Virus record (IMG/VR): IMGVR_UViG_3300047160_009070
Location: 1-64,000 of that record
Direction: 5' to 3' (one strand)
Length of the DNA stretch: 64,000 nucleotides
DNA from: a virus
A program made the translations under genes and the position numbers. The notes under the pieces were generated by a model, which had not been told where the DNA came from, did not search any database, and saw nothing but the letters and a program-made list of their open reading frames with translations. Of the stretch, positions 14,365 through 62,112 are shown one piece after another; position 1 is the first letter of the stretch, and each line of letters opens with the position of its first letter.

Positions 14365-15137
14365 ATGGCCGATCGGACCCTCATCGCATGGACCGACCAC
14401 ACCTTCAACCCTTGGATGGGTTGTTTCAAAGTGTCTCAGGGCTGTACTTGACCCACTGCTACGCGGAGACGATGACCAGCGGGCGGATGGGTCTTGACGT
14501 GTTCGGCCATGACACCTCTAAGCGTCAGCGTACGTCTGAGCGGACGTGGAAGAACCCGTTGCGCTGGAACCGCGAAGCCCAGGCGAACAACGTTCCGGCC
14601 AGGACGTTCTGCGCAAGCTTGGCGGACGTGTTCGAGGACGCCCCGGGACCGAACGCTTGGCGCAAAGAGTTGTGGGAGCTGGTGGACGAGTGCCGCTGGC
14701 TGGACTGGCAGATCCTGACCAAGCGCCCGGAGAACATCGCCCGGATGCTCCCGGACGATTGGGGTGACGGCTGGCGCCATGTGTGGCTGGGCACGTCGAT
14801 CGAGGACAACCGGGTTGCGGAGCGCTCGACGATCCTGACGCAGGTGCCGGCGTTCGTGCATTTCGTCAGCTACGAGCCGGCGATCGGTCCCGGCGACGAG
14901 ATCCCGCTTGAGGGTGTCGACTGGTTGATCTGCGGCGGCGAGTCCGGCCCGGGGTTCCGCAAGATGGATTTGGGCTGGGCGATCGACATGTGGGTTCGTT
15001 GCCGCGACGTCGGCGTCCCGTTCTTCTTCAAGCAGGATTCGGGGTATCGCACCGAGATGGGCATTGACGCTTTGGGTGTGGTGGTGCGCGAGTACCCGGT
15101 GTCGTGGGAGCGCCGGGCTGTGCTCGGCCTGTTCTGA
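14365..15137 (+). CDS. DUF5131 (phage Gp37/Gp68, radical-SAM-like) protein interrupted by a 5-nt stop-containing insert
   Basis: SD GAGGAGG; MADRTLIAWTDHTFNPWMGCFKVSQGCT, then TGA, continuing in another frame as HCYAE...FCASLADVF...WQILTKRPEN...VSYEP...WLICGGESG...FFFKQ. Confidence 0.85.
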
Positions 15138-15727
15138 TGCTGGTGCTATCTGTCGGCCCTGCGGCGGGGCCCCGTCCGGAGGTCACGCCGTTCGAGCTTG
15201 TCTATGTGACTCCGGAGGACGACTACGACTACAGCCGCTGGTTCTCCCGGATGTGGCGCGAGGGTTGCGGCTTCATCAACCTCGAGCCGGACGTCCTCCC
15301 GTGGTATGACGCGCTCGCTCCGCTGTGGTGGTGTCCGCATCCGGTGTGCAACTACGCGTACGGTGTTCCCGGCGGGCAGATGGTCGCGGCGCTGGGGTGC
15401 ATCAAGTTCTCCAAGCAGTTCATCGAGGGCAACCTTGAGTTGTGGCGGAGTTGGGACGGCGCGCACTGGACAGCTCTTGACGGGCGCGTCGATACCGCGC
15501 TCGCGTCGGTGGGTGTGACACCGCACCGCCATGAACCGCCTCTGTTCCACGCCCGCTCCGCCGGGCACGCCTGCCCGTATCTCCGGACGCAGTGCTGGGC
15601 GGCCGGTCGCTGCGTCCCGGGCGAACGCGGCGCCGACGTGGGGTGGGACGAGAATTTCCATCTTCCGTGCGAGATGGTTCAGGTATCGGCCGCGCAGCAG
15701 GCCGATGGCCGGATGGGAACCGGCTGA
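15137..15727 (+). CDS. Glycosyltransferase-like (GT-A fold) protein
   Basis: FINLEPDVLP (DxD-like) and ALGCIKFS motifs. Confidence 0.5.
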   Translation: MLVLSVGPAAGPRPEVTPFELVYVTPEDDYDYSRWFSRMWREGCGFINLEPDVLPWYDALAPLWWCPHPVCNYAYGVPGGQMVAALGCIKFSKQFIEGNLELWRSWDGAHWTALDGRVDTALASVGVTPHRHEPPLFHARSAGHACPYLRTQCWAAGRCVPGERGADVGWDENFHLPCEMVQVSAAQQADGRMGTG

Positions 15728-15822
15728 AGCGGGTGGCGGGAAGGACCGGCGGTATGGCTGCGCTCTCCGCCGGTGAACCGCCACCCGCTGCTTTAGTCTT
15801 GCGTTCGACAAGGAGGAATCGG

Positions 15823-16371
15823 ATGCAGATGCAAGTACCGAAGCTGACCGGCCCGATGGTGAAACTCGTCCGCACCGGCGAGGGGGTGCTGGTGTTCGGG
15901 GCGAACGCGGCGATCATCGTCGCGACCGCGATCACCCAGAACCTGTCGCCGGTGAACGGCGTGAAGTACGCCGTCATCCTGAACTCGGTGACGGTCATCT
16001 CACGCTCGATCTTGAAGGCTGTGAGCGCCACCCAAGGGTTGACGGGCGTCACGCCGGAGCAGTTCAACCCGCAGGCGCTCCCGGATCTGCAGACTCTGGT
16101 TGACGCTGTCTCCAAACAGGTGAGGGATGACCTGGCGGGCGCGAGCGCCGGGACGGTCGCCGGCCAGGCCGCCGAGGACATCCCGGATCTTGAGCAACTC
16201 GTCGCGGACGCCGAGCATTTTGACGAGGTGCCGCCCGCAACGCCGGAACCTCGGACGGAGGCGGAGGTCACACAGGCTCTCCAGGACGAGGCCCAGGTGG
16301 ATCTGACCGCCAAGCCCGAGTCGGCGGTCACACCCGACCCGCCGGCCGAGCCGACCCCCGCGGGCAGCTGA
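15823..16371 (+). CDS. Holin-like membrane protein with acidic tail
   Basis: SD AAGGAGG; two hydrophobic segments; directly upstream of lysozyme. Confidence 0.55.
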   Translation: MQMQVPKLTGPMVKLVRTGEGVLVFGANAAIIVATAITQNLSPVNGVKYAVILNSVTVISRSILKAVSATQGLTGVTPEQFNPQALPDLQTLVDAVSKQVRDDLAGASAGTVAGQAAEDIPDLEQLVADAEHFDEVPPATPEPRTEAEVTQALQDEAQVDLTAKPESAVTPDPPAEPTPAGS

Positions 16372-17117
16372 TGGACATCGACAGCGCCGGGCTTCATTTG
16401 ATCGAGGAGTTCGAGGGCTACTCCTACCACGCCTACTGGGATCCGTACGGTCGTGTGTGGACGGTCGGCTACGGCGAGACGAGCGGTGTCGGTCCCGGCA
16501 GCACCATGACGCGCGAGCAGGCGGAGGCCGATCTGAAGGGACGCGTCGTCCGCGAGTACGAGCCGGCGATCAAGGCGCTGGGTGTGCCGTTGAACCAGAA
16601 CCAGTTCAACGCGCTGTGCTCGTTCGTGTGGAACCTCGGCCCCGGGTCGATGCAATGGGACATCGGGCAGCTGCTGCGCCGCCGCGAGTATGGGGCGGCC
16701 GCCAACGCGATGCTCGAGTATTGCCGCGCCGGCGGTGTGGTGCTGCAGGGTTTGGTGAACCGCCGGATGGCTGAGCGCCGGCTGTTCCTCACCCCGGCAG
16801 GTCCGCCGCCTCCGCCCCCGGACCCGTACCGGGTTTATCCGCGTGGGCGCATTCCCGGTCTCGGGATCGACGAGCATGCGACGGTGGCGATGACCCACCG
16901 GCTGTTGAAGGAGCCGAGGCGCTACCGCCGGCTGTTGAAGGGGTTGATGTACATGCGGTTGCGCGAGCTCCGTGACCGGTGCTTCCGGCTGGCGAAGTAT
17001 CTGCCGCCGTCCTACCAGCAGCTGAGTCCGCATCCGGCGTGGACGGACGGACGTCATCTCGGGCGCCGCTGGCATGGTTTGAACGGGTTGATGAAGGAGA
17101 TCGAGAAGATCCGCTAG
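16371..17117 (+). CDS. Endolysin, GH24 (phage lysozyme)
   Basis: LIEEFEGYSYHAYWDPYGRVWTVGYGET, NQNQFNALCSFVWNLG, GLVNRRMAERRLF; Pro linker and basic C-domain. Confidence 0.92.
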   Translation: MDIDSAGLHLIEEFEGYSYHAYWDPYGRVWTVGYGETSGVGPGSTMTREQAEADLKGRVVREYEPAIKALGVPLNQNQFNALCSFVWNLGPGSMQWDIGQLLRRREYGAAANAMLEYCRAGGVVLQGLVNRRMAERRLFLTPAGPPPPPPDPYRVYPRGRIPGLGIDEHATVAMTHRLLKEPRRYRRLLKGLMYMRLRELRDRCFRLAKYLPPSYQQLSPHPAWTDGRHLGRRWHGLNGLMKEIEKIR

Positions 17118-17842
17118 TGCCGGGCGGTCAGCGTGCTGTCGGCTGGGGACGCGACCGTTCCCAGCACATCGGCTATCACCGCAAGTATCTGCTGCGCAAA
17201 CGGCTGCTGCGGTGGGCTTCGGACGGTGCCGCCTATGTGCCGTTCATCGGTGACGGCGACCTCGCAGCCGACCTGTACGACCAGCGTCTGATCCTGGGTG
17301 TCGACGAGGACCCGGAGCGTGTCGATGTCGCACAGCAGCGCCTGACCGGCGACATTCGTGTCGGTGACGCCGACGGCTGGCTGTTCACCGAGCACCGCAA
17401 GCCGCCGGTGGCGATCGCCGACTTCGACGCCTGGGCGAACCCTTACAGGTCGATGATCGCGTTTTGGGAGCACGCGCCGAAAGCCGACCGGCTGCTGCTG
17501 TTCTTCACCGACGGGATGAAGATCCCGTTGATGGCGGACGGCCTGTTCATACATCCGGACGGCACTAGGGAGAAGCTGCTGACGACCGTCGAGCGCCAGC
17601 GGGCGTTCTACTTCTATTTCAGCCGAACGGTGTGGCCGTGGTTCGAGGACACGATCCGGCCTTACACGGTGCTTGACAGGATTCGCTATCTGCAGGGCCA
17701 GCTGCTGTACTTCGGCGCAGCGATCGAGAGGAGCAGCGGTGGCCAGAGGAAAGCTCGCGAACTTCAAGGGCAAGCAGGCCGGCAAGTTCAAGAAGGGCGG
17801 CGGGCGCAAAAGAAAGCCGGCCGCGAAAGCCAAGCCGCGTAA
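17117..17842 (+). CDS. Hypothetical, methyltransferase-like Rossmann fold
   Basis: YVPFIGDG, ILGVDED, IADFDAWANPY, FFTDG. Confidence 0.5.
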   Translation: MPGGQRAVGWGRDRSQHIGYHRKYLLRKRLLRWASDGAAYVPFIGDGDLAADLYDQRLILGVDEDPERVDVAQQRLTGDIRVGDADGWLFTEHRKPPVAIADFDAWANPYRSMIAFWEHAPKADRLLLFFTDGMKIPLMADGLFIHPDGTREKLLTTVERQRAFYFYFSRTVWPWFEDTIRPYTVLDRIRYLQGQLLYFGAAIERSSGGQRKARELQGQAGRQVQEGRRAQKKAGRESQAA

Positions 17843-17912
17843 GCGCGCGAACGCCGCCCAGCTCAGGTTGCTGCGCAGGCACGCCAGATACCCGTTCGGC
17901 GGGGGACCGTAG
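17739..17912 (+). CDS. Small Lys/Arg-rich protein
   Basis: SD GAGGAG + GTG; ARGKLANFKGKQAGKFKKGGGRKRKPAAKAKPRKR. Confidence 0.55.
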   Translation: MARGKLANFKGKQAGKFKKGGGRKRKPAAKAKPRKRANAAQLRLLRRHARYPFGGGP

Positions 17913-17932
17913 GGCGAGTACTCTTCACGGCG

Positions 17933-18349
17933 ATGGCGCCACGCAAGAAGGCCCCGCCGGCGTTCCGTTTCCCGCCCGTCAAACAGGCCGAGTTCCTCGG
18001 GCATCTCCGCGCCGGGATGCGCCGCGGCGCTGCGGCGGACACGTTGAAGCTCGAGCGTTTGAAGGTCCGCGAGTTCATCGCGGCGCACCCCGAGTTTCTT
18101 GTGCTGGTCGAGGACGCAGAGCTTGACGCGAACGAGCATGTGGAGGAGGCGCTGTACCAGGCGGCGATCTCCGGATCGGTGCCGGCCGCCAAGACGTGGC
18201 TGGAGTTGAAGGGCGTCCAGTTCCCGGAGCATCGCGGCCGTCCCGCGAACCCGTTGCCGGAGATCCCGCCGGACCCGTTCGCCGATCTCGGGAACGTGGA
18301 AGCGCTCGACCCGCGTAGGCGCCGCAAGCAGATGGAGGACCAGCAGTGA
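17933..18349 (+). CDS. terS: Terminase small subunit
   Basis: KQAEFLGHLRAG HTH-like, VEEALYQAAISGSVPAAKTWL; upstream of TerL. Confidence 0.75.
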   Translation: MAPRKKAPPAFRFPPVKQAEFLGHLRAGMRRGAAADTLKLERLKVREFIAAHPEFLVLVEDAELDANEHVEEALYQAAISGSVPAAKTWLELKGVQFPEHRGRPANPLPEIPPDPFADLGNVEALDPRRRRKQMEDQQ

Positions 18350-18351
18350 CT

Positions 18352-18369
18352 GGTCTCAGCGCTGAGACC
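18352..18369. repeat. 18-bp palindrome GGTCTCAGCGCTGAGACC (copy 1)
   Basis: Perfect palindrome; further copies at 32326 and 62050. Confidence 0.8.
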
Positions 18370-18374
18370 GGCTG

Positions 18375-19913
18375 ATGGCCGAGCTTGAGCCGTTCTCCGT
18401 CCCGCACTTTCTGGCGTTCGCGCAGCGGCTGGTGCTGGACACGTTCGAGACGTGGGATGTCGAGGATTTCCAGGTCGACATGTTCGAGCCGATCCTGCGC
18501 GGCATCCGCGAAACATGGAACGTGATCCCGGAGGGGAACACCAAGACGACGTCGTCGGCCGGCTTCGGCCTGTATCACTGCCAGTACACGAAGGCGCCGT
18601 GGGTGCCGATCGTCGCCAGCTCGCGCGACCAGGCGGAGATCCTCGCCCAGCAGGCGTACGGGATCATTCGCATGACCCCCGGGCTCGAGTACAACCAGCG
18701 CACCCACACCGGCTACTTCCGGATCTACGAGGGGTACAGGCAGATCAAGAACATGCGCACCGGCGGACGCGGGATCAAGGTGTACGCCGCCGATGTCGGC
18801 ACGTCCGACGGCGGCATCCCGACGCTGGTGCTGTGCGACGAGGGGCACCGCTGGCCGGACCTCAGCCCGTACCGGTTGTGGAAGGGGAAGCTCGGCAAAC
18901 GCCAGGGACAGATCGCGATGACGTCAACCGCCGGCGAGCCGGGCGGGGATTTCGAGGAGCAGCGCGACAAGATCCGAGAGGCCGCCACGTCACGCGCGCT
19001 GAACGGCTGCCACGGCTTTTACGAGGGCCCGAACATCGTGATGAACGAGTGGATGGTGCAGAAGGCCGAGCATGTGACCGACATGGTGAGGGTGAAGGAG
19101 GCCAACCCTTTTTCCGGGATCTCGGTCGCGTCGCTGACTGAGGAGTACAACTCGCCGACGACCGACCTCGGCGACTTCACGCGCCTGAAGTGCAACCGGC
19201 CGGCGCGCAGCATCTCGTCCGCTATCACCGAGGGCGACTGGTCGAAGGCGCTTCACCCGAATCTGCGGGAGATCCCGGACGGCGAGCATGTGAGCGTCGG
19301 GATGGACGTGGCGTGGAAGAAGGACACGTTCGCGATCGTGCCGTGCTGGCAGTTCCTCCCGGTCGAGTTCGAGCGCCTGTCCGACGAGGTGCGGGCGATG
19401 CTGGAGGAGGTGGAGATGCACACCAGGGCGTGGCGTCTTCTCGGCACCCCGCGCATCCTGACGCCCCCGAGGGACGGCTCGACGATGCATCCGGACAAGG
19501 TGAAGATCGCGTTCGAGGAGTTGCATGCCCGCAACCCGGTGGATGTGGTGGTGATCGACATGCAGCGGGCTGAGGACATCGCGGCGTGGATCGAGGACGA
19601 GTTCGACATCGGGGTGCTGGACCGCACCCAGAGCAACGCCCTGGCGGTCGAGGACTTCGACGCGTTCATGAAGGGCCTGCGGTCCAACACGCTGTGGCAT
19701 ACAGGCGACCGGGGGTTGCGTAAGCATGTGATGAATGCGATCTCGAGACGGCTGCCGTCCGACAAGTACCGGTTCGACCGTCCGTCGCAGTCGCGAGCTC
19801 GCCGCAAACAGGAGGTTCGTGTGATCGACGCGCTGACAGCAGCGGCGATGGTCAACCAATACTTTGACGGCCTTGAGCCGGAGAACGCCGAACCCTTGGT
19901 GTCATGGCGGTAG
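18375..19913 (+). CDS. terL: Terminase large subunit
   Basis: Walker A-like IPEGNTKTT, ASSRDQA, Walker B LVLCDEGH, TSTAG, ANP, nuclease VGMDVAWKKD and IDALTAAAM. Confidence 0.93.
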   Translation: MAELEPFSVPHFLAFAQRLVLDTFETWDVEDFQVDMFEPILRGIRETWNVIPEGNTKTTSSAGFGLYHCQYTKAPWVPIVASSRDQAEILAQQAYGIIRMTPGLEYNQRTHTGYFRIYEGYRQIKNMRTGGRGIKVYAADVGTSDGGIPTLVLCDEGHRWPDLSPYRLWKGKLGKRQGQIAMTSTAGEPGGDFEEQRDKIREAATSRALNGCHGFYEGPNIVMNEWMVQKAEHVTDMVRVKEANPFSGISVASLTEEYNSPTTDLGDFTRLKCNRPARSISSAITEGDWSKALHPNLREIPDGEHVSVGMDVAWKKDTFAIVPCWQFLPVEFERLSDEVRAMLEEVEMHTRAWRLLGTPRILTPPRDGSTMHPDKVKIAFEELHARNPVDVVVIDMQRAEDIAAWIEDEFDIGVLDRTQSNALAVEDFDAFMKGLRSNTLWHTGDRGLRKHVMNAISRRLPSDKYRFDRPSQSRARRKQEVRVIDALTAAAMVNQYFDGLEPENAEPLVSWR

Positions 19914-20110
19914 TCGAACAGGAGCGCCAGGCGCCGCGCCTGCCGCTCGGCCGGCTGGTGCTGTCCGCGACGCTGGTGCTGATCGGCGCGCTGATGATTC
20001 TTGTCACGGTCGGGTTTCTGTTCTGGCCGGCGGACATCATCATCGTCGGTGCTGTGCTGGTGTTGATCGGCGCGTTCTTCGTGCAGCTCGCGGAACCTCC
20101 GAGGCAGTGA
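19904..20110 (+). CDS. Small two-TM membrane protein
   Basis: Hydrophobic 68-aa ORF between terL and portal. Confidence 0.65.
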   Translation: MAVVEQERQAPRLPLGRLVLSATLVLIGALMILVTVGFLFWPADIIIVGAVLVLIGAFFVQLAEPPRQ

Positions 20111-20115
20111 GCTAA

Positions 20116-21690: not shown

Positions 21691-21711
21691 TGAACAACGC
21701 GAGGAGTTTTC

Positions 21712-24221: not shown

Positions 24222-24229
24222 GTACGGTT

Positions 24230-24299
24230 GCACCTGCGGCTCATGGGAGCCGGGCCGGGTTCGCACCGGTCAGAGGCGGTTCGATTCCGCTCAGGTGCA
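24230..24299 (+). ncRNA. tRNA-like cloverleaf (nominal anticodon TCG) downstream of capsid gene
   Basis: GCACCTG/CAGGTGC acceptor + A; GCTC-ATGG-GAGC D arm; GCCGG-GTTCGCA-CCGGT anticodon arm; GGCGG-TTCGATT-CCGCT T arm. Confidence 0.7.
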
Positions 24300-24320
24300 T
24301 TTCAAACCAAGGAGGACGCA

Positions 24321-26014: not shown

Positions 26015-26359
26015 GTGTCGATGACTGTCGTCGGGTCGGGTACGCAGACCGCGATCATCGGCAGCGAGCACACGCTGCAGGACACGTCGGCGATCGGTAT
26101 CTACACGTTCGAGGTGGATACCGTCAACATGGCGGCGCTCGACATCCTCGAGCTTCGGGTGTACAAGATGGTGCTGACGTCCGGCACCCGCCGTGTCTGC
26201 TATCTGGAGAGGTTCACGGACGCGCAGCCGACGGACGATCTGATCAAGGTGTCGGTGCCGATCTCGACGGCGCTGACCGACTCCGGCGCGCTGAGGTTCA
26301 CGCTGAAACAGATCGCCGGCACGGGGCGCGCCTATCCGTGGTCGGTCAACAGCTTTTAG
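26015..26359 (+). CDS. Putative structural protein
   Basis: Beta-rich 114-aa ORF in the structural operon. Confidence 0.6.
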   Translation: MSMTVVGSGTQTAIIGSEHTLQDTSAIGIYTFEVDTVNMAALDILELRVYKMVLTSGTRRVCYLERFTDAQPTDDLIKVSVPISTALTDSGALRFTLKQIAGTGRAYPWSVNSF

Positions 26360-33345: not shown

Positions 33346-33954
33346 ATGCAACCGTATGAAGTGATCTGCTTCCCATACGTGGCGTACGTCGCTCCGGTTG
33401 GGAGCTCTTTCCCTCCAGTCAGCGCAAGCTTCGGCTCCGGTGGGTTCTCCGGCCCGCAGAACACTCCGCCGGCGCCTTGGACGACGCTTGGTTCGTCCGG
33501 CAACAAGTCCTACATCGACACGGGCGTGACGGTGTCGCATCCGCAGACGATCGGCACGTTCGTCCCGGGCGGCTCGACCGCTATCCGCAAGGCGTGGCGC
33601 CAGACGGAGGAGCTGACGTGCGCGTTCTCGCTCGCCGATCTGTCCCCGGCGCAGTATGCGTTCACGTTGAACAACGCGACGGTCACGACCGTCGCGCAGT
33701 CGACGTCGTCCGGCGACGAGCATTTCGAGGTGTACCGCGGTGTGCTGGTCAACTCGTTCGCGCTGCTGGTCCGTGGCGTCAGTCCGTTCCAGGAGGCGTA
33801 CGCAGCCCAGTACGAGATCCCGGCCGCCTACAACGCCGGCAACGCCGCCCCCGTGTTCTCCAAGCAGGGTCCGGCGGTACTCGCCGTCGAGTGGCATGCG
33901 TACGAGTTGACGATCGGCCAGCTCGCGACGTTCAGGGCGCAGCAGACTCCGTAG
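33346..33954 (+). CDS. Major tail (tube) protein
   Basis: AYVAPVGSSFP, WTTLG..G..SY...GVTVSH; upstream of chaperones and tape measure. Confidence 0.8.
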   Translation: MQPYEVICFPYVAYVAPVGSSFPPVSASFGSGGFSGPQNTPPAPWTTLGSSGNKSYIDTGVTVSHPQTIGTFVPGGSTAIRKAWRQTEELTCAFSLADLSPAQYAFTLNNATVTTVAQSTSSGDEHFEVYRGVLVNSFALLVRGVSPFQEAYAAQYEIPAAYNAGNAAPVFSKQGPAVLAVEWHAYELTIGQLATFRAQQTP

Positions 33955-33957
33955 CGG

Positions 33958-34299
33958 ATGGCGGTTGACGTCGTTCAGGAGGAGTGGCATCCGAGCCACA
34001 TCACGGCCAGGACGGCGCAGGCGATTTCTGACGACATTCGCCGCCAGGTAGACGCCGATCCTGAGCTTGCCGCGCTTGAGGCGCAGCGCTGCTACCGCGA
34101 GTTCAGGGAGCAGCGGTATGAGGCCCGGCGGCACCAGCGCCGGGCTCGTCGTGCGATATTCCGCGCCAAAACGTTCCAGCGCGACCTTGAGGCGCTCGGG
34201 ATCACCGTGATCTTCGAGCTGGGCCCCCGGGAGCGCGCCCGTCAACTCAACGCCACAGAAGGAGGCGACAGTGACAACCAGGCAGCGCAAGCCACCTAG
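33958..34299 (+). CDS. Hypothetical protein
   Basis: 113-aa ORF in the tail operon. Confidence 0.5.
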   Translation: MAVDVVQEEWHPSHITARTAQAISDDIRRQVDADPELAALEAQRCYREFREQRYEARRHQRRARRAIFRAKTFQRDLEALGITVIFELGPRERARQLNATEGGDSDNQAAQAT

Positions 34300-34828
34300 C
34301 GAACAGACGCCGGCTGCGAACGGCGCGGTGCCGGAGGAGGACTCCAGCAAGGTTCTCGATCTGATCAGCCTCACCCCGAGCCGCAAGCTCGTGAGGCTGC
34401 CGACGAAGGACCATCCGGAGGGGGAGACGTTCGAGTTGCGGCTCGTCGACGATTTCGGGATCGAGATGCAGCAGAAGCTGCTCGCATGGAGCCGGCAGTT
34501 CACCAATCTCATGTCGTCGGAGGAGGAGCTTGACGACGACCAGGCGGCACGGATGCGGTTTCTTCTGGAGAGCCTGTTCGAGCAGGTGCTCGGCCCGTCG
34601 CCGGACATGACGAAAACCGAGTTCGCGGACGCGAGGCGGGGTATGGACGACGCGGTTCGCCACCGGGTGGTTCAGGCTTTTTCGTGGGCGCCGGTGCTGG
34701 CGCGAAACGAGTTGCAGACCGAGTTGATCAAGCGGCTGGTGGACAGGAAGTATCTGAAGCAGGAGCAGGTGGACGAGGTGATGGACGAGCTCAGGCTGGA
34801 GTTGACGAGGTCGACTTCGGGGAGTTGA
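34271..34828 (+). CDS. Tail assembly chaperone (gpG-like)
   Basis: SD AAGGAGG; position before tape measure. Confidence 0.7.
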   Translation: MTTRQRKPPSEQTPAANGAVPEEDSSKVLDLISLTPSRKLVRLPTKDHPEGETFELRLVDDFGIEMQQKLLAWSRQFTNLMSSEEELDDDQAARMRFLLESLFEQVLGPSPDMTKTEFADARRGMDDAVRHRVVQAFSWAPVLARNELQTELIKRLVDRKYLKQEQVDEVMDELRLELTRSTSGS

Positions 34829-35187
34829 TCCCCAGGCTGCATGAGCTCTACGGGCCGGCTGATCCTGTGTACGGGTCTTGGTGGGATGTGCCCGCCAAGA
34901 AGTTCTGGGCGTACGTGCGGATGATGCCGGTGCTGCGCGCCCGCGCGTCGATCTCGAGGATCAACGAGATGTCGTTGGCGTTCGGGTCGATGCAGAAGGA
35001 GACCGCCAACTCGTTCATGCTGCAGCTGAGGACGGCGGCGACTTTGGACAGCGGCGACAGCGGCCCGAGGGTGTACCGGCCGCGGTCGCCTGCCGAGATG
35101 GCCGGTCTGGCTGGTGCGGGTACGGCGGTGGTGATGGAACAGGGCCCGAGGACACGCTCCTCCGCAACCCCGGTCGGTACGCCGTGA
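34825..35187 (+). CDS. Tail assembly chaperone C-part (gpT-like), in -1 frame
   Basis: -1 frame open across TCG GGG AGT TGA; LIPRLHELYG...WWDVP; either a -1 slip or a TTG start. Confidence 0.6.
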   Translation: MIPRLHELYGPADPVYGSWWDVPAKKFWAYVRMMPVLRARASISRINEMSLAFGSMQKETANSFMLQLRTAATLDSGDSGPRVYRPRSPAEMAGLAGAGTAVVMEQGPRTRSSATPVGTP

Positions 35188-35329
35188 GACGCCGTGTAAC
35201 GCGTTCTGAGCGGCCGGACCGTGTACCGGCCCTTGGCCATGCACACACCCCGCGGGGCGTGACAGGCGCCTGCAGGCGCTGCGAGACGCAGCAAATTGAC
35301 AGGTCGAGGAAAGGAGGTCCGGTACTCTC

Positions 35330-38300
35330 ATGACAGAGTACCTTTGACCTCGGCGATGCCGTCCTCGAGTTCGACGGGGACATCGAGCCGCTCGCGAGGA
35401 AGGTCCAGGAAGCCCACCAGATGGTCAAGACCGGCCTGGACGGAATGGGCCGTGAGATCCAGGGCTTCACCGCACTGGCGATCCGTTCGGGGCAGGAGCT
35501 CGAGCTTGCGTACATCCAGCCGCTGAAGCGAGGCTTCGACGAGCTTTCGCTCGCCGTGTTCGCCTACCACGAGCGTCTGACCGGGGTGATAGGCGTCACG
35601 CACGAGGCTGCGGGCGCGATGCTGCAGCTGGGTGCCGCGTCGTCGCAGATGGCGGAGCAGACCGTCCGTGCGCTCGCCGACGTGCGGGGTGCTGTGGAGA
35701 GCACGGCGCTGCTGATCATCGCGGCTGCCCGCAGCGAGGTTGACGCGATCAACGAGGTGACGGCCGCGTATCTGCGCCAGGCGGCGGCTGCTCGTCTCGC
35801 GGGGGGCAGTGCCGGGGTGACGCTCGCGGCGGGTGCGCTTCCGCTTCCGTCGTTGCGGGCGGGGGTTGCGCCGGCTGCTCTCGGCCCCGCCCCGGGGCAG
35901 CCGCTCGCCGGCAACTACCGGATTTGGGGTTCGCGTGGTGACGCCGCCCCCGGCTCGATGGTGAACCCGGTTGTGGTCGCGATCGAGTCCGGCCAGTACG
36001 CCGGTCTCGGCGCACGCGCCGCGGCGCTCGGGTTCACGGCGGGCGCCCAGCCGTCCGGGTCGATCCTCGATCCGGTCACCGCCCAGGCTTTGCGTGACAT
36101 CGCGCAACGCCAGATCGCTGCGGCGCCGGCGTTGACGCCGGGGGAGATCATCACTGCCGCCAGGGCGCTGCCGCAGGAGGACCTGCGCCGGCTGGTGGGA
36201 ATCCTGGACCGCCCGATCGCCGGCGGCGCCGGTCCACCGATCGACTGGCGGCCGGACCCGACGTTCCGGCGTGCCGTCCAGTCGGTTTTGGCGGGCGGTC
36301 CGTTCGCCGAGCCGAACGTGTCGGTGTCGGGTTTGCAGCGGTCGCTGCAACTGCAGTACACGCAGGCGCTCCAACTCCAGAGACAGCTTCAGCAGGTGGG
36401 TCTGATCGAGTTGCGGTCCGGCGGCGGGTTCCGGGTTGTTCAGCCGAAGGTGCAGGAGTACCAGCGCCTGATGTTCGGCGCGACCGGTCCTGCGTTCCCG
36501 GGCGCCAGCTATGGCCGTGCGCCGACGGGCGAGATGGCCGGGATACCGCAGCCGGCCGAGCGACTCGACATTTTCGGGGCGCTCGCCGAGCAGCAGGCTG
36601 CACAGGAGGCGCAGATCGCACAGCAGCAGGCTGATCTCGCGAGACAGGAGGCGCAACTCGGCCGGCAGATGTCGCTGTTCGAGGGGATGGCCCGCCGCGG
36701 CGGGATCTGGCCCGGTGTCGTGGCCGCGATGGGTCCCGAGCCGCTCGGGCCGTACGGGCCCGTAGGCCGGTTCGCGTACCGGCCTTTGGGGGTTCCGGGT
36801 GAAGCCGAGACCGGGTATGAGGCTCTGAGGGCGGGTGCGACCGGTGCGACTGCCCGCCCGACGTGGATGGGCGGGACGGTCCTGCCGCCTGAGCCGACGG
36901 TCAAGATCGACGCTGCGCAACTCGCGGCGCTTGAGGCTGCTCTGAAGGAGGGCCGGATCAGCCAGACGCAGTTCGATGCGCTGTCCTCCGCGCTCGCGCT
37001 CGGCGGCACCCCCGGTGCCCCCGGCGGGGGAGGCGGAGGCGGAGGGGTTCCCCCGGTGGCTGTCGGTCCACCCGGTGGCGGAGGCGGCGGAGGCGGCCGT
37101 GCCTTGTGGCCTTTGGCGCTGGCTGCTCTGTGGGGACGCCCGACTCTCGGCGCACGAATCCCGTTCACTCCGTTCTCGCTGCCGATGGCCGGGTTCGGAA
37201 GCCTCGGCTCGCTCGCCGGTCTCGGCCCGGAGCATTGGCTGATGACCGCTTTGGGGATCGGCGGGTTCGCTGCCGCCGGCGCCGCCGGCGCGGGTGCGAT
37301 AGCGCTCGGTTCGGCTGGCACGCTCGCGGCCGGTGCCGGCTCGAACGCGGCTGTGATGTCGTCGACGATCAAGGACACCCAGACGCTGTCGCAGGCGATG
37401 ACTGCGGTGCAGACGGCGCAGCAGAACGTGGCGCAGTCCCAGGCCGCGTATGCGGCGGCGGTTCACCAGTTCGGGCGCAACTCGACGCAGGCGACAGCCG
37501 CCGCGAGCCAGCTGACGGGCGCCACCAACACGCTGACGACCGCCCAGCAGAACTACAACAGCACCGTCAGCCAACTCGGAGGCCCGCGCGCCCCGGGTGT
37601 GCAGGCGGAGATCCAGTTGGCGAAACAGACACAGGCGCTCAACAAGTTCTGGGACCAGCAGACGCAGATGGCCCGGGTCGCCGCGGTGCACGTGCTCGAG
37701 CAGGTGGTGCAGCTGGGTCACGACTACGTGCCGCTGGTGGCGCAGGCGGCGCAGCAGAACCTGACGATCATCAACCAGGACATCAAACCGTTGTTCTCAT
37801 GGCTCGAGGGTCCGCAGGGAAGAGGCATCTTCCTGCAACTCGAGGACCAGTTCAAAAGGACTCTGCCGACCGCGATCGACGCGTTCTCCAAGGCGATCGA
37901 GGTTGTGCTGCGGGTCACGCAGGTCGCGTCCCAGTACAGCGGCACGTTCGTCTCCTGGCTCGACAAGTTGGTGAACCGCTTCAACAGCATGTCGAACGTC
38001 CAGTTCGCGAACACGATCCGGCGGCTCGTCGGCGACTTCCGGGACTGGGAGAGGTTCGCGAAGGCGATCGCCACCGACCTGTATCTGCTGTTCAGCCAGG
38101 ACGTCGGCACCGGCAAGTCGATCATCACCACGCTCACCACCATGCTCGAGCATCTCGGCAAGTGGGAGAGCTCAGTGAAGGGGCGCGAGGAGATCCGCAC
38201 GATCTTCGACGTGCATCTGCACGAGGTGCAGGCGCTGCTCGGGATCATGCCGAAGCTGTTCGGCGTGTTCGGCCAGCTCTACATGACGTTGGCGCCGCCG

Positions 38301-50731: not shown

Positions 50732-51958
50732 ATGTCGTGGACATGCCAATGGTTGACGTGCCCCCGCTACGAGATCGCGCAGGCGATCGCCAATAACCAG
50801 CCGCTGGCGCCGCTGATCGTGATGCGCCACGGCACTGCCTACTGCAGCGAGTGCGGGGCGGTCGTCACGATCCCGCACTCCAGCGCACAGTCCGTCACGC
50901 CGGTCCGGAACACCACGATCACCAACGACGGGCGCTGGAACGCGTACGGGGGGATCTGTGTGGGCACCGGCGGCAAGCTGATCGCGGTGTGCCGCGACGG
51001 GTTCGACTATGCCTCCAACGACGGGCACATCGCGGTGATGACCTCGGCCGACGGGGGTGTCACATGGAGCGGCAAGACGTTGCTCGCGCCTCCCGGCGGC
51101 GGAGCTCAGGGCTGGTATCACTACTGCTCGGTGATGCAAACCCGGACCGGGCGGCTGGTGATCACCTGCTCACCCCGGTTCTCCGGCGGCGCGATCAACG
51201 GGATCAACGTCATCACGTCCGACGACAACGGCGTCACTTGGTCGGGGCCGAACCTGATCTTCCCGTTCGGCGGCTCGCCGCCGGGGTCCGGGACCGTCAG
51301 CATCAACAACAGCGCCTGTGTGCAGCGCGACAACGGCGACCTGCTGATGCCGATCTACGGTCTCGGCGGCAGCGATGTGAGCCAGCGTCCGGGGGTGATC
51401 ATCTCCCCCGACGACGGCAACAGCTGGAGCACCCCCTCCTACATGGGTGCCGCGAACAGCGGCTACGCCTGCTACTCGATCGTGGAGACAGCCAGCGGGG
51501 GTCTGCTGGCGTTCATCGACGACGGCGCCGGCCACATCCGGATGTCCACCTCCGACGACGGTCTCACTTGGACCAACCCGGGCAGCGCGATCCCGTCCGG
51601 CGCCCCGATCTCGATCGACTCGACGTACCGGTTCAACGTCGGCTACGTCGAGGACCTCGACGGTCTGGTGCTGGTGTACAGCAACGCGTCGGCGCTCACC
51701 AGCTACCGGCTCTCCGCCGACGACGGCGCCACATGGTCAAACGAGGTGGTGCTCGCGACCGGCTACATCGCCAACCAGTTCTCGGCCGCCTGCCAGTACG
51801 GGGTGAGCCAAGTGCTCGTCGCCGACTCCCGCCAGTCAGGCAGCCAGCCGGTCGACTTCCACTTCACGCTGATGCAGGTCGTCGGGTCGCCGGGTGTCGC
51901 CGCCGATCTGCTGCCCCTCGCAACGCTCGACAACCGGCCTACCCCAGGCCCACCATAA
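50732..51958 (+). CDS. Asp-box (BNR) beta-propeller, sialidase-like
   Basis: Five Asp boxes: SADGGVTW, SDDNGVTW, SPDDGNSW, SDDGLTW, SADDGATW. Confidence 0.8.
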   Translation: MSWTCQWLTCPRYEIAQAIANNQPLAPLIVMRHGTAYCSECGAVVTIPHSSAQSVTPVRNTTITNDGRWNAYGGICVGTGGKLIAVCRDGFDYASNDGHIAVMTSADGGVTWSGKTLLAPPGGGAQGWYHYCSVMQTRTGRLVITCSPRFSGGAINGINVITSDDNGVTWSGPNLIFPFGGSPPGSGTVSINNSACVQRDNGDLLMPIYGLGGSDVSQRPGVIISPDDGNSWSTPSYMGAANSGYACYSIVETASGGLLAFIDDGAGHIRMSTSDDGLTWTNPGSAIPSGAPISIDSTYRFNVGYVEDLDGLVLVYSNASALTSYRLSADDGATWSNEVVLATGYIANQFSAACQYGVSQVLVADSRQSGSQPVDFHFTLMQVVGSPGVAADLLPLATLDNRPTPGPP

Positions 51959-51966
51959 GGAGAACG

Positions 51967-57777: not shown

Positions 57778-58088
57778 TGGGACATCACCAGCCGGTGTTC
57801 GACGGGCCGGTGCCGCTCGCGGTGATCGCACCCGCCACACGCCGCGAGTTGGACAGCCGCGCCAAACAGCGGTTCGGCCTGACGCTCGAGGGGATGTACG
57901 CCACCTGGGCGTACTGGTGCCGGCGCGCCGGGACGTTCAGGGCGCTGCCGTGGTGGCAGCGCCGGAGGGTGCGCACGGCGATCAGGGAAGCGGACCGCAA
58001 AGCCGAACTGAACCTTGAGCGCATACGCGCCCTATGGAATCCGTCGGTCGATGTGGTAGAAGTTGCCGACCGAACAGGAGATCCATGA
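57777..58088 (+). CDS. Hypothetical protein
   Basis: TGATG-coupled ORF. Confidence 0.55.
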   Translation: MGHHQPVFDGPVPLAVIAPATRRELDSRAKQRFGLTLEGMYATWAYWCRRAGTFRALPWWQRRRVRTAIREADRKAELNLERIRALWNPSVDVVEVADRTGDP

Positions 58089-58324
58089 CCGAGACGATTC
58101 CGATCAACGCCCCACGCCGCCGGCGCCGCGGCCCCGAGTTGATGGGCGCCAGGGAGGTAGCGGACTGCCTCGGCGTGAAGGTGTCCAACCTGCAGTTCAT
58201 CAAGGACCTGCCGCAGCCGTTGCAGGAGCTCACGTGCGGGCGTGTCTGGCTCGCCGCCGAGATCCGCAAGTTCGCGGAGGTTTACGAGGCGAGGCGCGAA
58301 GCCCGCCAGACGAAGGCTGCGTAA
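58085..58324 (+). CDS. AlpA/excisionase-like HTH protein
   Basis: LMGAREVADCLGV...LPQP...GRVWLAAEI; SD AGGAG. Confidence 0.75.
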   Translation: MTETIPINAPRRRRRGPELMGAREVADCLGVKVSNLQFIKDLPQPLQELTCGRVWLAAEIRKFAEVYEARREARQTKAA

Positions 58325-58452
58325 AGCAGCCGGTTCCTCGACCAAGGAGGTAGCACCACACGACCATTAGCGGCGCGGCCGAAGTAAGCGAGTAGGCCAA
58401 CGTGCGAGCGCCGAGCTGGGCAGTGACCTAATACCGTTCAGGAGGTTCCTTC

Positions 58453-59034
58453 ATGAAGTACCTCGTCCGGCCAGCCGTTGTGCTGGCCGTTGCTGTTCCC
58501 GGGCTGGCGGGGAGCGCGCACGCCCGGGTGTTCCCGGTCGCGCACGCGTCGTCCCGGCTGCTGGCGTCGGCGCCTGCCTGCGACAGGCTGTACAGCGTCG
58601 CGATGGCGAAACGCGCGATCGACGTCACCTACCGCCGGGGGGAGCGCCGCCACGACGTTGACCATTTGCGCCGGTTCATCCGCTGCCAGCGCAACCCCGG
58701 CCATTCGCAGTCCTATTTGAGGGGAGAGTGGGCGCGGCAACGCGCCAGATGGAGGGAGAGAACAGCACCGCCGCCGGCTCAGGTTGCGAGCTCGACGCCG
58801 GCGAGCGGGCTGGCTGTCTGCATCATCCACGCCGAGTCGGGCGGGAATTCGCAGGCCGTCAATGGACAATACGAGGGAATCGCCCAGTGGTCACCCAGTA
58901 GCTGGGCTGGCGGCGGCGGGTTGCGGTTCGCCTCGACGCCGCTGGGGGCCAGTTACAGCGAGCAGGTGATCGTCCTGAACGAGATGCTCGCCAACGGGCA
59001 GGCGTCCCAGTGGACGTGCTGCGATCCGTGCTAG
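58453..59034 (+). CDS. Secreted Rpf-like transglycosylase
   Basis: Signal peptide (..AHA); CIIHAESGGN..NGQYEGIAQW...ASYSEQ...GQASQW. Confidence 0.85.
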   Translation: MKYLVRPAVVLAVAVPGLAGSAHARVFPVAHASSRLLASAPACDRLYSVAMAKRAIDVTYRRGERRHDVDHLRRFIRCQRNPGHSQSYLRGEWARQRARWRERTAPPPAQVASSTPASGLAVCIIHAESGGNSQAVNGQYEGIAQWSPSSWAGGGGLRFASTPLGASYSEQVIVLNEMLANGQASQWTCCDPC

Positions 59035-59055
59035 AAGCTAGAAGCTAGAACTTAG

Positions 59056-59091
59056 ACGGCCGGGTGGTCATGCGATCGCCCGGCCGTTTTT
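59056..59091 (+). terminator. Intrinsic terminator
   Basis: ACGGCCGGGTG...CGCCCGGCCGT followed by a T run. Confidence 0.8.
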
Positions 59092-59244
59092 GTCGCTAGC
59101 TGCGGCAAAACCCTCGACGGCTGGCCGTCATAGCGTCACAATGCGCCGATCGTTACAGTGGGCGTCCGGTGAGCGTGGTAGCTTCGTATGGGTGAGAGAC
59201 GAGCAGGCCGATCACGGCTGTGGGCTGGACGTCCCGGGTGCGGC

Positions 59245-60384
59245 GTGACCAGGCAGCTGTCGTTCACCGAGATCCAGACCGCTTTGACGTGCGAGGGACG
59301 CCACGCGTTCCAGTACACCGGCCGTCTGACCGGCGGCGAGACTCTGAAGCGTAAGCAGATCGCCGTGGAGCTTTCCAACGGCCGCGCCTGGGGTGCTGCT
59401 GTGGCTGCGTGGCACGGCTTCCCTGCCGACACGAGCCTGCTGGACGCCTACCGGCCCGTACTCGCCAAGCAAGCCGCCCACGAGGCGCTGCTGGCGTCCT
59501 ACAGGCATGATGTGGAGGAGCAGCTCGCCGCCGGCGTGTGGGTTCCGGTGGAGGCACAGGTGGACCGCCAGACTTGGCTGGCGGAGATCCTCGACCATTA
59601 CATGGCGACCGGCGTCCCGCTCGAGAATCTCACCAGGATCGAGGGTGGGTTCGATATGCCGCTGCCGTCCCGGACAGGCAAACGTGTGTCGACGGTGTAC
59701 CGGTTCACCGGGTTTCTTGACGGCTGGACGGTCCCGGCCGGCGGTGGGCATGCGCTGGTGGAGTTCAAGTTTCGCTCCCGTCTCACCCCGCCGGACCAGG
59801 TGCAGCTGTCCCGGCAGGTCCGCTGGTATGCGCTGGCGTTGCAGCGCGAGACGGGTGTGCCGGTGATCGGCGCGGTCCTGGATGAGCGTTTGGCGGAGCC
59901 GCCGAAGCCTCCGCGTGTGGTGCAGGCGAAACGCAAGGGGGAGGGTGTGGACGGCTGGACGGTCAGTCACGCCAAGGACCAGCTCACCACCCCCGAGCTT
60001 TATCTCGAGGCGTGCGGGTTGTTCGACGCCGAGCCGGAGCCCGACACACTCGATGCTCTGCGGACTCGTTTGTGGCAGCAGCGCCACCCGATTCTGTTCC
60101 GCCCGTCCGAGTTGGCTGAGGCGGAGCGCGAGTTGGTGTCGGCGGCGAAACTGATCCGCGATCTCGATTCGGGCGCCCGCTACCCGGTGCGTAACGCCCA
60201 GACGCAGCTGTGCCGCCGCTGCCGCTATCTCGAGGCATGTCCGAACCCGGACGACCAGTTTTATCTCGACACGCTCTACGAGCGCACTGTGCCGAAGAGG
60301 CTGCGTGCTCGAGAGGAGGAGAGCACCGGCGGGGGAACTCTGGCCCCTGGACCCCCCGCCGGCCTCTTCGCGGAGGCAGCATGA
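59245..60384 (+). CDS. PD-(D/E)xK exonuclease (RecE/Cas4-like); may start at 59188
   Basis: LSFTEIQTALTC, GRAWG, FTGFLDG..LVEFK, QVRWYA, CRRCRYLEAC. Confidence 0.85.
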   Translation: MTRQLSFTEIQTALTCEGRHAFQYTGRLTGGETLKRKQIAVELSNGRAWGAAVAAWHGFPADTSLLDAYRPVLAKQAAHEALLASYRHDVEEQLAAGVWVPVEAQVDRQTWLAEILDHYMATGVPLENLTRIEGGFDMPLPSRTGKRVSTVYRFTGFLDGWTVPAGGGHALVEFKFRSRLTPPDQVQLSRQVRWYALALQRETGVPVIGAVLDERLAEPPKPPRVVQAKRKGEGVDGWTVSHAKDQLTTPELYLEACGLFDAEPEPDTLDALRTRLWQQRHPILFRPSELAEAERELVSAAKLIRDLDSGARYPVRNAQTQLCRRCRYLEACPNPDDQFYLDTLYERTVPKRLRAREEESTGGGTLAPGPPAGLFAEAA

Positions 60385-60812
60385 TGGCCTACAACGACGT
60401 GAACTTCACTTGCTGTGTGTGCGGGATCGCGATCACGATGCCGGAGGGCCTGTATCAGCAGCGGGTGACGGATCACGGCGAGTTCTATTGCGTGAACGGC
60501 CACCGGCAGCGTTTCACCCAGAAGGACAAGAAGGAGCAGGAGATCGCCCGTTTGCGCGAAGAGGTGCGAGCCAGGGACTCGCTGATCGAGACTTTCCGTA
60601 GCGAGGCGAACGAATTGTGGGATGAGCGCGAGGGTTTGATCGCTTTGCTGCGCGAATGCCCGCTCTGTGATTGGCGCTCCAGCAAGCGCATCCCCCGGGG
60701 TGGTGTTCGTGCCGGCGTTGAGCGTGTCCACCAGCAGTTGGTCGACCATTTGGCGCACGACCACGGGCTGCCGGTGCCGCAGGAGCAGCGTCTTCTGGAG
60801 GCGGGGGCGTGA
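60381..60812 (+). CDS. Zn-binding coiled-coil hypothetical protein
   Basis: CCVCG, FYCVNGH, CPLC, HLAHDH. Confidence 0.7.
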   Translation: MMAYNDVNFTCCVCGIAITMPEGLYQQRVTDHGEFYCVNGHRQRFTQKDKKEQEIARLREEVRARDSLIETFRSEANELWDEREGLIALLRECPLCDWRSSKRIPRGGVRAGVERVHQQLVDHLAHDHGLPVPQEQRLLEAGA

Positions 60813-61276
60813 GCTCCACCCGCCATGGCGTGTCCGGCAAGTGGGACGGCCTCATCGAGGAGCGCGACCGGCTGAAGGACCAGGTGCAGGGCCTGAGCGA
60901 TCATGTCGAGCGTCTGGTGGAGGAGTGCGACAGGCTGCTGGACGCCAAGGAGCTTCAGCTGCACGAGCTACGCGACCTGCTTCGGGACCAGCCGAACGAG
61001 GCTTGGGCGACTGTTTCGGGGACGGTGGAGGTCGCTCAGCGTCGTGTGGAGGAGGCCGAGGCCCGCGCCGACATCCGGCCTGACAGCGACGAGCAGGAGG
61101 CGCTCGACGCTTTGCAGAGCTACATGGCGGTGGTGGTGCACCGCTGGAAGCTCCGCGCCAACCAGGGCGAGTTGCTCGCCGCTGTTCACACTCTGCAGGG
61201 CGCTGTCCAGCAGCACCTGCTTCACCGGATCGCCCCGAACAATTGGGCTAGCTGGTGGCAGGAAAGTTCACCATGA
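60809..61276 (+). CDS. Coiled-coil hypothetical protein
   Basis: GTGA-coupled ORF. Confidence 0.6.
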   Translation: MSSTRHGVSGKWDGLIEERDRLKDQVQGLSDHVERLVEECDRLLDAKELQLHELRDLLRDQPNEAWATVSGTVEVAQRRVEEAEARADIRPDSDEQEALDALQSYMAVVVHRWKLRANQGELLAAVHTLQGAVQQHLLHRIAPNNWASWWQESSP

Positions 61277-61310
61277 GCGATCCGTTGAGGCGGAGAAGGG
61301 ACGGAATCTG

Positions 61311-62112
61311 ATGCGATTCGTGGACCGACCGGGGCCTGCTAGACCGAACATTCTGATCTACGGGCCCCCGTAAGGAACCAAAGGTGGGTAAGACGGCGGG
61401 TGCGTGCTCGTCGGGTTTGGGAACGATCCTGTTCAACCTCGATCTCCCGAACGCGACCCGTTATGCCCGTTCCAAGAAACGCGATCCGGACGGCAGGGTG
61501 ATGGAGGTCGAGTTGCCGCCGTTCGAGGAACGCAAACTCCCGGTCTTCGATCTGATGGGCGAGATCTCCCGGTCGGTCGCCGATCCGCGCCAGGAGGTGG
61601 CGGAGGTGGTGGTCACCGACCCGATGGGCGAGCTTTACCGGCGTCTGCTGGAGGAGGTGTCGAACCGGTCGATCCATCCGACGTTCGATCACCGGCTGTG
61701 GGTGACCACCCAGATCGAGCGTTACTGCCGGTTCCTGTGCGAGCTGCCGACCATTTCGGCGATCTTCGTGTGCCACGAGCTTCCGGTGAAGGACGAGTCG
61801 ACCGAGTCGTTCGAGCGGTTGCCGTTCACCGGCACCACCAACATCAATCTCGGCGCCAAGTTGATGTCGATGGTGGATGTGATCGCCTACGCCGGCGTGT
61901 CGGTGCAGGAGAACGGCGCGAAGGAGTACGGTGCCCAGTTGATCATCGACCAAGGGCGCCGCGGCGGGGACCGGTTCGATTGTCTGGGGGACTATCGCCC
62001 GCTGGATTTGAAGGACTGGTTCGCGGCGATCGCTGGGGCGGAGGTTGCCGATCTCAGCGCTGAGACCAGTAGCGAGGAGCCTGCCGGGAAGCCGGTGGCG
62101 GAGGCGGCGTGA
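61311..62112 (+). CDS. AAA_24/Sak4-like ATPase interrupted by a 10-nt stop-containing insert in Walker A
   Basis: MRFVDRPGPARPNILIYGPP-TAA...KVGKT; VVVTDPMGELY, IFVCHE, MVDVIAY; flanked by exonuclease and SSB-like genes. Confidence 0.85.
62050..62067. repeat. 18-bp palindrome copy 3 (17/18 match)
   Basis: GATCTCAGCGCTGAGACC. Confidence 0.7.

Follow-up and report, generated by a model that had tools for sequence, protein, structure and literature searches.

Three genes interrupted close to their starts

The DNA considered here is the first 64 kb of a 95,319-base record of an uncultured soil phage (IMG/VR record IMGVR_UViG_3300047160_009070; these 64,000 nucleotides are referred to as the window), and its subject is three genes, encoding a DUF5131 protein, the tape measure protein and a Sak4-like recombination ATPase, in which a stop codon interrupts the reading frame shortly after the start. 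In all three cases, as had been noticed in an earlier reading of the letters (the original prediction), a ribosome-binding site and a start codon lead into a short N-terminal segment resembling the family, a stop codon follows, and the rest of the protein is encoded in another frame (Table 1). Screening of the whole record by codon-usage likelihood for coding frames revealed only three places where coding continues without a start codon, and these are the three breaks; other candidates at 724, 22524, 30678, 62493 and 82656 turned out to be a repeat array or ordinary gene junctions. The breaks follow 28, 5 and 20 family-like codons (sites 1, 2 and 3), hence in every case lie at most 28 codons from the start. 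The stop comes right after the codon that would serve for take-off, a synonymous landing codon ends the gap, and the gaps measure 5, 7 (or 1) and 10 nucleotides (nt), with joined products that align to intact homologs without gaps. How could full-length proteins be made from such genes? Comparison with homologous sequences leads us to favor, with moderate confidence, short translational hops triggered by the stop codon as the best explanation for all three breaks, the case for recoding being better at DUF5131 and the tape measure than at the ATPase.

Table 1. Coordinates of the interrupted genes, their coding gaps and the predicted hairpins in the window
Feature	Position	Strand	Evidence and remarks
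DUF5131 N-terminal segment, 28 codons (MADRTLIAWTDHTFNPWMGCFKVSQGCT)	14365..14448	+	PF07505 profile 2-25, E 1.6e-8; phrog_2045 1-28
Site 1 coding gap, 5 nt, TGACC	14449..14453	+	stop TGA 14449-14451, landing ACC 14451-14453
Predicted hairpin starting in site 1 stop and landing codon	14450..14493	+	-22.3 kcal/mol, z -4.0
DUF5131 body, HCYAE to stop	14454..15137	+	PF07505 profile 26-221, E 3e-50
Two-tier hairpin at site 2	35314..35351	+	-22 kcal/mol, z -3.75
Tape measure start, ATG and MTEYL (5 codons)	35330..35344	+	AAGGAGG upstream; take-off CTT 35342-35344
Site 2 coding gap TGACCTC	35345..35351	+	stop TGA 35345-35347, landing CTC 35349-35351
Tape measure body, ~2560 codons	35352..43031	+	open frame, homolog alignment
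Sak4-like / AAA_24 ATPase N-terminal segment, 20 codons (..NILIYGPP)	61311..61370	+	take-off CCG 61368-61370
Predicted hairpin directly 5' of site 3 stop, ending at take-off codon	61328..61371	+	-21.8 kcal/mol, z -2.7
Site 3 coding gap, 10 nt, TAAGGAACCA	61371..61380	+	stop TAA 61371-61373, Shine-Dalgarno-like AAGGA, landing CCA 61378-61380
ATPase body, KVGKT to stop	61381..62112	+	phrog_124 Sak4-like; homologs carry PF13479

The DUF5131 gene and its relatives

The DUF5131 gene encodes a three-cysteine enzyme, and its body has 6161 homologs. The gene starts at ATG 14365 behind GAGGAGG, and its first 28 codons end in GGC TGT ACT, of which ACT (14446-14448) is the presumed take-off codon; the body then opens with CAC TGC TAC (HCYAE) at 14454 in a frame different from that of the N-terminal piece. 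In PHROG 2045 the N-terminal piece covers positions 1-28 and the C-terminal piece positions 29-235, and since the coordinates of the two pieces abut exactly on this profile as on Pfam PF07505, the insert has to be 5 nt long. A hop from ACT to ACC over these 5 nt would yield ..GCT-HCYAE.. and restore the Cx6Cx2C metal-binding motif exactly. The eight intact relatives compared read GC[KST][HN]CYAE or GC[KA]HCYAA at this position. Over its 227 codons the body contains no further stop or shift. A -1 or +2 slip was rejected, as it would lack a slippery pairing or lengthen the Cx2C spacing, and a dip in synonymous changes around the junction was discarded because it does not differ from that between pairs of intact homologs. 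The gene is preceded by a 290-nt non-coding stretch (14075-14364) with a hairpin at about 14122-14152 and a sigma-70-like promoter (TTGCCC-17 nt-TATACT, about 14202-14236), for which reason DUF5131 seems to head its own transcription unit.

DNA was available for 173 DUF5131 loci, among them 92 from IMG/VR and 80 from metagenomes. The gene is uninterrupted in all 92 IMG/VR loci, and all 53 matches in cultured phages span 80% or more of the query in one piece, while three of the 80 metagenome loci (L096, L101 and L154) are broken. All breaks, in the window, in L096, twice in L101 and in L154, fall at profile positions 10-28 of 255, and none was found in the remaining 225 codons of the 173 loci. 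One of them, L101, is an unrelated metagenome contig from the Joint Genome Institute (JGI), whose DUF5131 body is 58% identical to that of the window. Its gene has ACT TGA CC CAC, letter for letter, at the codon where the window has it. Another insert built in this way, CAC ACC TGA CT TGG, lies 15 codons upstream between HT and WNPW, and the take-off and landing pairs of L101 are ACC/ACT and ACT/ACC. No lesion beyond these two inserts was found in the L101 gene, and a protein from other sources, P0093, reproduces it at 99.6% identity. Conservation of the inserts in homologs, by which the original prediction was to be judged, therefore holds for DUF5131 in L101, while the ATPase insert recurs in none of its four readable relatives (see below). 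Relaxed selection downstream of the break is likewise not seen for DUF5131. Comparison of the window with L101 gives ratios of nonsynonymous to synonymous substitution rates (dN/dS) of about 0.10 over the N-terminal piece of 28 codons and of about 0.31 over the body, at nearly saturated synonymous sites.

The other two broken loci differ in detail. Within the first 30 codons of the L096 DUF5131 gene (529-660), a base is added behind TTT (TTT C AAG), and a palindromic insert of 6 nt creates CGA TTA CGT (TTACGTAA) where the window has its 5-nt gap; L154 lacks one base. In addition, the N-terminal peptides of P0005 (..SHLT LNPWMGC), P0006 and the 22-member P0021 cluster are out of frame, which, as far as these protein sequences go, would imply further breaks in the same stretch. 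Among the 120 closest DUF5131 proteins, 14 were called from the Met of ..NPW-M-GC.. and 10 from the Met of ..R-M-GLDVFG.. (P0008, P0023, P0031, P0044, P0057, P0058 and P0063 are among these internal-Met calls), and such calls suggest that many more metagenomic copies may be broken within the first 40 codons.

The tape measure gene

At site 2 a frame of 2565 codons stays open from 35334 on, with no ATG, GTG or TTG ahead of 35421, and the codon-usage signal for coding sets in at about 35340. Because the stretch 35352-35420 is coding and conserved with the N-termini of homologs, yet offers no in-frame start codon, only the out-of-frame ATG 35330 can serve the frame. Which event would join the two? 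The original prediction had assigned a re-pairing option to each site (ACT with ACC, CTT with TTT and CCG with CCA), and all of these exist as described; its claim that a single recoding event at the stop repairs each break is supported as well, except that at the tape measure the proposed CTT-to-TTT slip meets a competitor. In the slip, a +1 shift on CTT-T, only T 35345 would be skipped, and the product MTEYLDLGDAVLEF (MTEYLDLGDAV) needs a two-residue gap against the homologs. A 7-nt hop from CTT (35342) to CTC (35349) would instead give MTEYLGDAVLEF, MTEYLGDAV..., which aligns gap-free to P0200, P0201, P0202 and P0203; the only detectable homologs start with MTEVLGEAVLDL (MTEVLG..), VTEVLGEAV, MEVLGDAV and MEELGVAI. 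The site may therefore be read at least as well as a 7-nt CTT-to-CTC hop as a +1 slip of the prfB type. The frame is free of secondary stops and shifts over about 2560 codons.

The heptamer CUU UGA C occupies 35342-35348, and of its five copies on the plus strand only this one leads into coding sequence in another frame. A Shine-Dalgarno-like stimulator 3 nt before the CUU was not seen, the upstream sequence being ACAGAG TAC; the real Shine-Dalgarno sequence lies 22 nt before the CUU codon. In the hairpin predicted here, Shine-Dalgarno GAGGUC pairs with GACCUC, which contains the landing CUC, and an inner stem of 8 bp holds the AUG in its loop. Moreover, a tape measure fragment from a 1,923-nt contig (P0199), 97-98% identical, was called from the Met at 35421, as would be expected if the same frame break were present there; its own end is odd, and it lends slight support.

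Two observations concern the surroundings of site 2. Residues 308-369 of the tape measure (36255-36440) match the FtsK gamma domain PF09397 with 24 bits, below the cut-off, and the same region matches an FtsK/SpoIIIE-like PHROG family, which is unusual within a tape measure protein. Upstream, at 34271-35187, lies a tail assembly chaperone pair in which the frame 34271-34828 passes into 34534-35187 (-1), with a coding signal from about 34804; no classical XXXYYYZ heptamer was seen near 34800-34828.

The recombination ATPase gene

The third gene starts at ATG 61311 behind a ribosome-binding site, and its first 20 codons end in ATC TAC GGG CCC CCG. The sequence after the gap, AAG GTG GGT AAG ACG, continues in the +1 frame as KVGKTAGACS..., and since homologs read NILLYGPPKSGKTAGACS in one piece, the 10-nt insert sits inside the Walker A motif. 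A hop from CCG to CCA over 10 nt would give GPPKVGKT, as found in P0123 and P0124, so that at site 3, as at site 1, the family motif is restored exactly, in agreement with the original prediction. The body contains no further stop or shift over 243 codons. A +1 slip on CCC-C was rejected, since it would lack a slippery pairing or lengthen the P-loop. Some ATPase homologs from JGI (P0182 and P0186) were called from just behind Walker A, while their 90%-identical mates P0220 and P0223 are full length, and these truncated calls give hints of similar breaks.

Recoding weighed against damage, reinitiation and artefact

Several features common to the sites bear on the recoding hypothesis. The codons in the A site would be TGA, TGA and TAA, and the rare UUA codon is not found at these take-off sites. 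At sites 1 and 2 the take-off codon is a rare T-ending and the landing codon a common C-ending one, an arrangement that would favor release and re-pairing, though it is reversed at the upstream site of L101. The hairpins are locally significant at all three sites, with z scores that are inflated because the windows were picked after a first fold. Three other general explanations were discarded: an alternative genetic code (insert lengths are not divisible by three, and 78 of the 114 ordinary genes end in TGA), transcriptional slippage (there are no long homopolymers) and UGA-C as an unusual context (20 genes end with it).

A number of observations weigh against recoding. TGA is the main stop codon of the phage and TGA-C a common gene end (20 genes), and for that reason none of the stops is marked as intrinsically weak. 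L101 does not preserve the site 1 hairpin. The DUF5131 insert has a patchy distribution across a tree of gene bodies, in which the window groups with the intact P0002 and P0004 and the N-terminally truncated call P0003, and L101 belongs to another clade; the insert may thus have entered both lineages recently, and owing to the patchiness the dN/dS values say less about the time spent with the insert. All four ATPase relatives with readable DNA (L093, L174, L175 and L176; 37-47% identical) are intact and lack the insert, which leaves room for a recent knock-out of this gene. Furthermore, start codons that could restart translation lie at sites 1 and 3, and the support by reads is thin and confined to site 3; these two points are taken up below.

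A first alternative is that the breaks are true inactivating indels, the record representing a defective or recently damaged variant with DUF5131 and the ATPase, and possibly the tape measure, as young pseudogenes. DUF5131 and Sak4 proteins are dispensable in many phages, the DUF5131 relatives nearest to the window are intact like those of the ATPase, and the record is a metagenome contig estimated to be 82% complete. Yet three random indels would be unlikely to fall all within 28 codons of the start, each with an immediate stop and a synonymous codon at its end, and L101 shares the identical insert and has a second one of the same type with no other lesion. A broken tape measure would be lethal, the protein being essential to tailed phages, and still words of the stretch 14000-15500, which holds DUF5131, are present in 23 soil-metagenome runs. 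Moreover, neither the tape measure frame nor the two other bodies show secondary damage. That random decay does not explain the breaks, as the original prediction had argued, is thus borne out by the co-linearity with homologs, the L101 insert, the clustering in the first 28 DUF5131 codons and the N-termini of the tape measure homologs. Decay leaves the joint pattern and L101 unexplained but may apply to the ATPase; for the three genes together we regard inactivation as unlikely, if far from negligible.

Alternatively, the genes could be split, with termination followed by reinitiation at TTG 14448 and at GTG 61384 behind AAGGA, and the two chains assembling or the N-terminal part being dispensable. 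At site 1 the TTG overlaps the stop (TTGA), and gene callers start the L101 protein (P0093) at that TTG; at site 3 TAAGGA, 7 nt and GTG mimic the normal junctions at 51956 and 72532. Against this stands that the cuts would fall inside the Cx6Cx2C metal-binding motif and the Walker A loop, making separate chains implausible, that L101 would need a 13-residue and a 15-residue fragment, the latter started at a CTG, and that the tape measure frame lacks any start codon in 35334-35420 even though the stretch is conserved. Split genes therefore appear improbable.

Could the breaks have arisen in assembly or sequencing? Reads were examined at site 3 by means of the Logan contigs of four runs (X1-X4) over 60300-62500, at a depth of 2-5x. 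The X2 contig matches 61103-61386 without a difference, includes the whole 10-nt insert and ends 6 nt past the gap; the contigs of X1, X3 and X4 do not reach the site, and none of the four bridges it by a 31-letter rule. Of the confirmation by reads for which the original prediction had called, this contig gives thin support at one of the three inserts. At the tape measure one extra T in a TTT run would suffice for an artefact; inserts of 5 and 10 nt are atypical of short-read errors. In addition, the 5-nt insert appears in L101 and P0093, independent assemblies of another phage, and P0199 starts where the same broken frame would make it start. An artefact ranks as the least probable of the explanations.

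How the hops might proceed and where the inserts may come from

The anatomy of the sites, their co-linearity with homologs, an insert that recurs in a diverged relative and a sequence otherwise free of lesions are seen directly, and from these we infer that hopping happens, along with any statement on its efficiency or on why the gaps exist. In the course envisaged, translation would start at the upstream ATG of each gene. With the stop codon in the A site, termination would compete with release of the P-site peptidyl-tRNA from ACU, CUU or CCG. The mRNA would then slide by 5, 7 or 10 nt until the same tRNA re-pairs with ACC, CUC or CCA, and decoding would resume at the next codon to produce full-length DUF5131, tape measure and Sak4-like ATPase; at site 2 a +1 slip on CUU-U, of the prfB type, would likewise lead into the tape measure frame. 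As a side effect of the inserts, expression of the three genes would be held down.

Given its patchy distribution, the DUF5131 insert could have spread horizontally, originated repeatedly or been lost precisely several times. An exact-pattern scan for it in the genome_contigs and viral_contigs collections gave no match. In L096 a homing endonuclease with NUMOD4 and HNH_3 domains (65-523) ends 6 nt before the broken DUF5131 gene, and in L172 a related nuclease precedes an intact copy. The patchiness and the HNH gene beside the L096 copy point to inserts that may have spread horizontally, and the likeliest origin would be that they are of the kind left around the target sites of homing endonucleases. 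The neighbors of sites 1 and 3 do not match nuclease families, and the profiles HNH (PF01844), HNH_3 (PF13392) and GIY-YIG (PF01541) have no match in the whole phage record; if the inserts came with homing-endonuclease elements, such elements are now gone from this genome.

The original prediction went further and saw in the breaks a single phage-wide circuit that turns on recombination and tail genes when termination is slow, with release factor low or inhibited. Recoding in competition with termination is established for prfB. In the phage all three stops would occupy the A site during such a competition, two of them are UGA, which is read by RF2 only, and, as in prfB, the sites lie so early in the genes that little would be wasted. 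Nothing beyond this stop usage speaks for a switch: no sign of a release-factor inhibitor or sensor was found, one of the sites uses UAA, the three genes belong to different modules, and with UGA ending most ordinary genes low RF2 would disturb everything. The patchiness of the DUF5131 insert and the homing endonuclease adjoining one relative would rather be expected of selfish or immunity-type inserts than of a conserved regulon. Such a circuit is hence quite improbable. It could also be imagined that the lineage uses a family of 5-10-nt stop-triggered hops, without a homing endonuclease, as a translational gate on unrelated genes including the tape measure, with the efficiency set by RF2 and RF1 competition and by hairpins. 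We consider this doubtful; it would be the first natural multi-gene stop-hop regulon. At the tape measure start the Shine-Dalgarno sequence is predicted to pair with the landing site.

What would follow if the hops are real? Experiments have proven translational bypass in T4 gene 60 and, partly, in phiHau3, and very short hops over stops are known mainly from synthetic reporters. Short stop-hops would then be a natural, recurrent way to tolerate or exploit tiny inserts. At less than 60 nt each, the three sites are compact test cassettes for reporter work. They also hold a warning for annotation, as the three genes are now called as N-terminally truncated proteins (P0001, P0121 and P0205), and behind many "short" DUF5131 entries of metagenome catalogues there may be an interruption of this sort. 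Furthermore, the start region of DUF5131, with its diverse inserts and one HNH neighbor, offers a test case for coding gaps as immunity to homing endonucleases.

The phage and its genomic context

The phage record is linear, with the above completeness estimated by CheckV, has a G+C content of 66%, carries nearly every gene on the plus strand and is almost devoid of TTA (2 of 28,787 codons). The best cellular match of its Sak4-like gene is a metagenome-assembled genome of the Solirubrobacterales. This match, together with the soil runs, the G+C content and the rarity of TTA, makes a high-GC actinobacterium the likely host, as judged from sequence comparison. Searches of the phage collection at the nucleotide and protein level brought up no close relative.

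Positions 1-1051 of the window form a non-coding array of units of about 36 nt, cut by the start of the contig, each of which holds GAGCGAGCCG; this motif is present in 21 copies between 34 and 1011. Self-avoidance of this spacer array by the phage's own genes was considered and dropped, since no spacer match exceeds 7 nt across any repaired junction. ARAGORN predicted a tRNA-Met (cat) at 10483-10555, a 72-nt tRNA-Arg(tcg)-like element at 24229-24300, which lies 8 nt behind the stop of the gene before it, and, at genome positions 72428-72522, a tRNA-Gln(ctg)-like element of 95 nt; none of these three calls is for Thr, Leu or Pro codons or for stops. Within the structural module, same-frame junctions at 26357, 28005 and 50726 read TAG CCG GTG/ATG and one at 33952 reads TAG CGG ATG. 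Three bases separate stop and start in these junctions, a Shine-Dalgarno sequence is not visible, and the arrangement suggests tight translational coupling.

Relation to known systems

By analogy, the closest known case would be the inserts in the large terminase gene of the Streptomyces phage phiHau3, taken together with synthetic stop-hops. In phiHau3 and two prophages, inserts of 10 or 7 nt are associated with UUA (Smith et al., 2013; Antonov et al., 2023, PMC10732093; PMC5009743), mass spectrometry demonstrated bypass of the phiHau3 insert in E. coli when UAA had been substituted for UUA, and a 5' stem-loop and a Shine-Dalgarno-like element were proposed as signals (PMC10732093). Both systems have very short frame-breaking inserts in high-GC, TTA-poor phage genomes, with matched codons and flanks co-linear with uninterrupted homologs. 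They differ in that the A site holds UUA there and genuine stops (UGA, UGA and UAA) here, and in that the present gaps of 5, 7 and 10 nt affect three other genes of one genome, lie at most 28 codons from the start and are described from sequence. The CGA TTA CGT at the DUF5131 position of L096 is phiHau3-like in its UUA.

In T4 gene 60, ribosomes cross a gap of 50 nt with the help of a take-off stem-loop and a 46-codon nascent-peptide signal (Huang, 1988; bioRxiv 10.1101/2022.08.31.505936). In both, a stop follows the take-off codon, the landing codon is a matched one, and two frames contribute to a single protein. In contrast, the gaps described here are 5-10 nt long, the nascent chains have 5-28 residues, and HNH, HNH_3 and GIY-YIG genes are absent from the record; a take-off stem-loop of the gene 60 form, holding the stop, was not seen, the hairpins at the three sites being of another form. 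Gene 60 occurs with the homing-endonuclease element mobA, and its insert is thought to protect a homing-endonuclease target (Manning and Atkins, bioRxiv 10.1101/2022.08.31.505936). The HNH gene directly upstream of the broken DUF5131 of L096 is a further likeness, and this layout fits the idea that small inserts at the 5' end may disarm a homing site, which would also account for the clustering of breaks near gene starts.

Site 2 shares with prfB the identical CUU UGA C, a Tyr codon before it and a position early in the gene. Unlike prfB, it has no strong Shine-Dalgarno sequence 3 nt upstream (only GAG), the tape measure is not a release factor and offers no autoregulatory logic, and the CUU-to-CUC hop fits the N-termini of tape measure homologs better. 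Finally, ribosomes stalled at UGA hop to codons matching the P-site anticodon (PMC6815119), and +5 and +6 stop-hops in E. coli are attributed to Weiss et al. (1987) in PMC10732093. The re-pairing of peptidyl-tRNA with a nearby cognate codon over a stop and the distances covered are the same as those proposed here; the E. coli cases are reporters or by-products at the per-cent level, whereas in the phage natural genes would depend on such hops, one of them essential.

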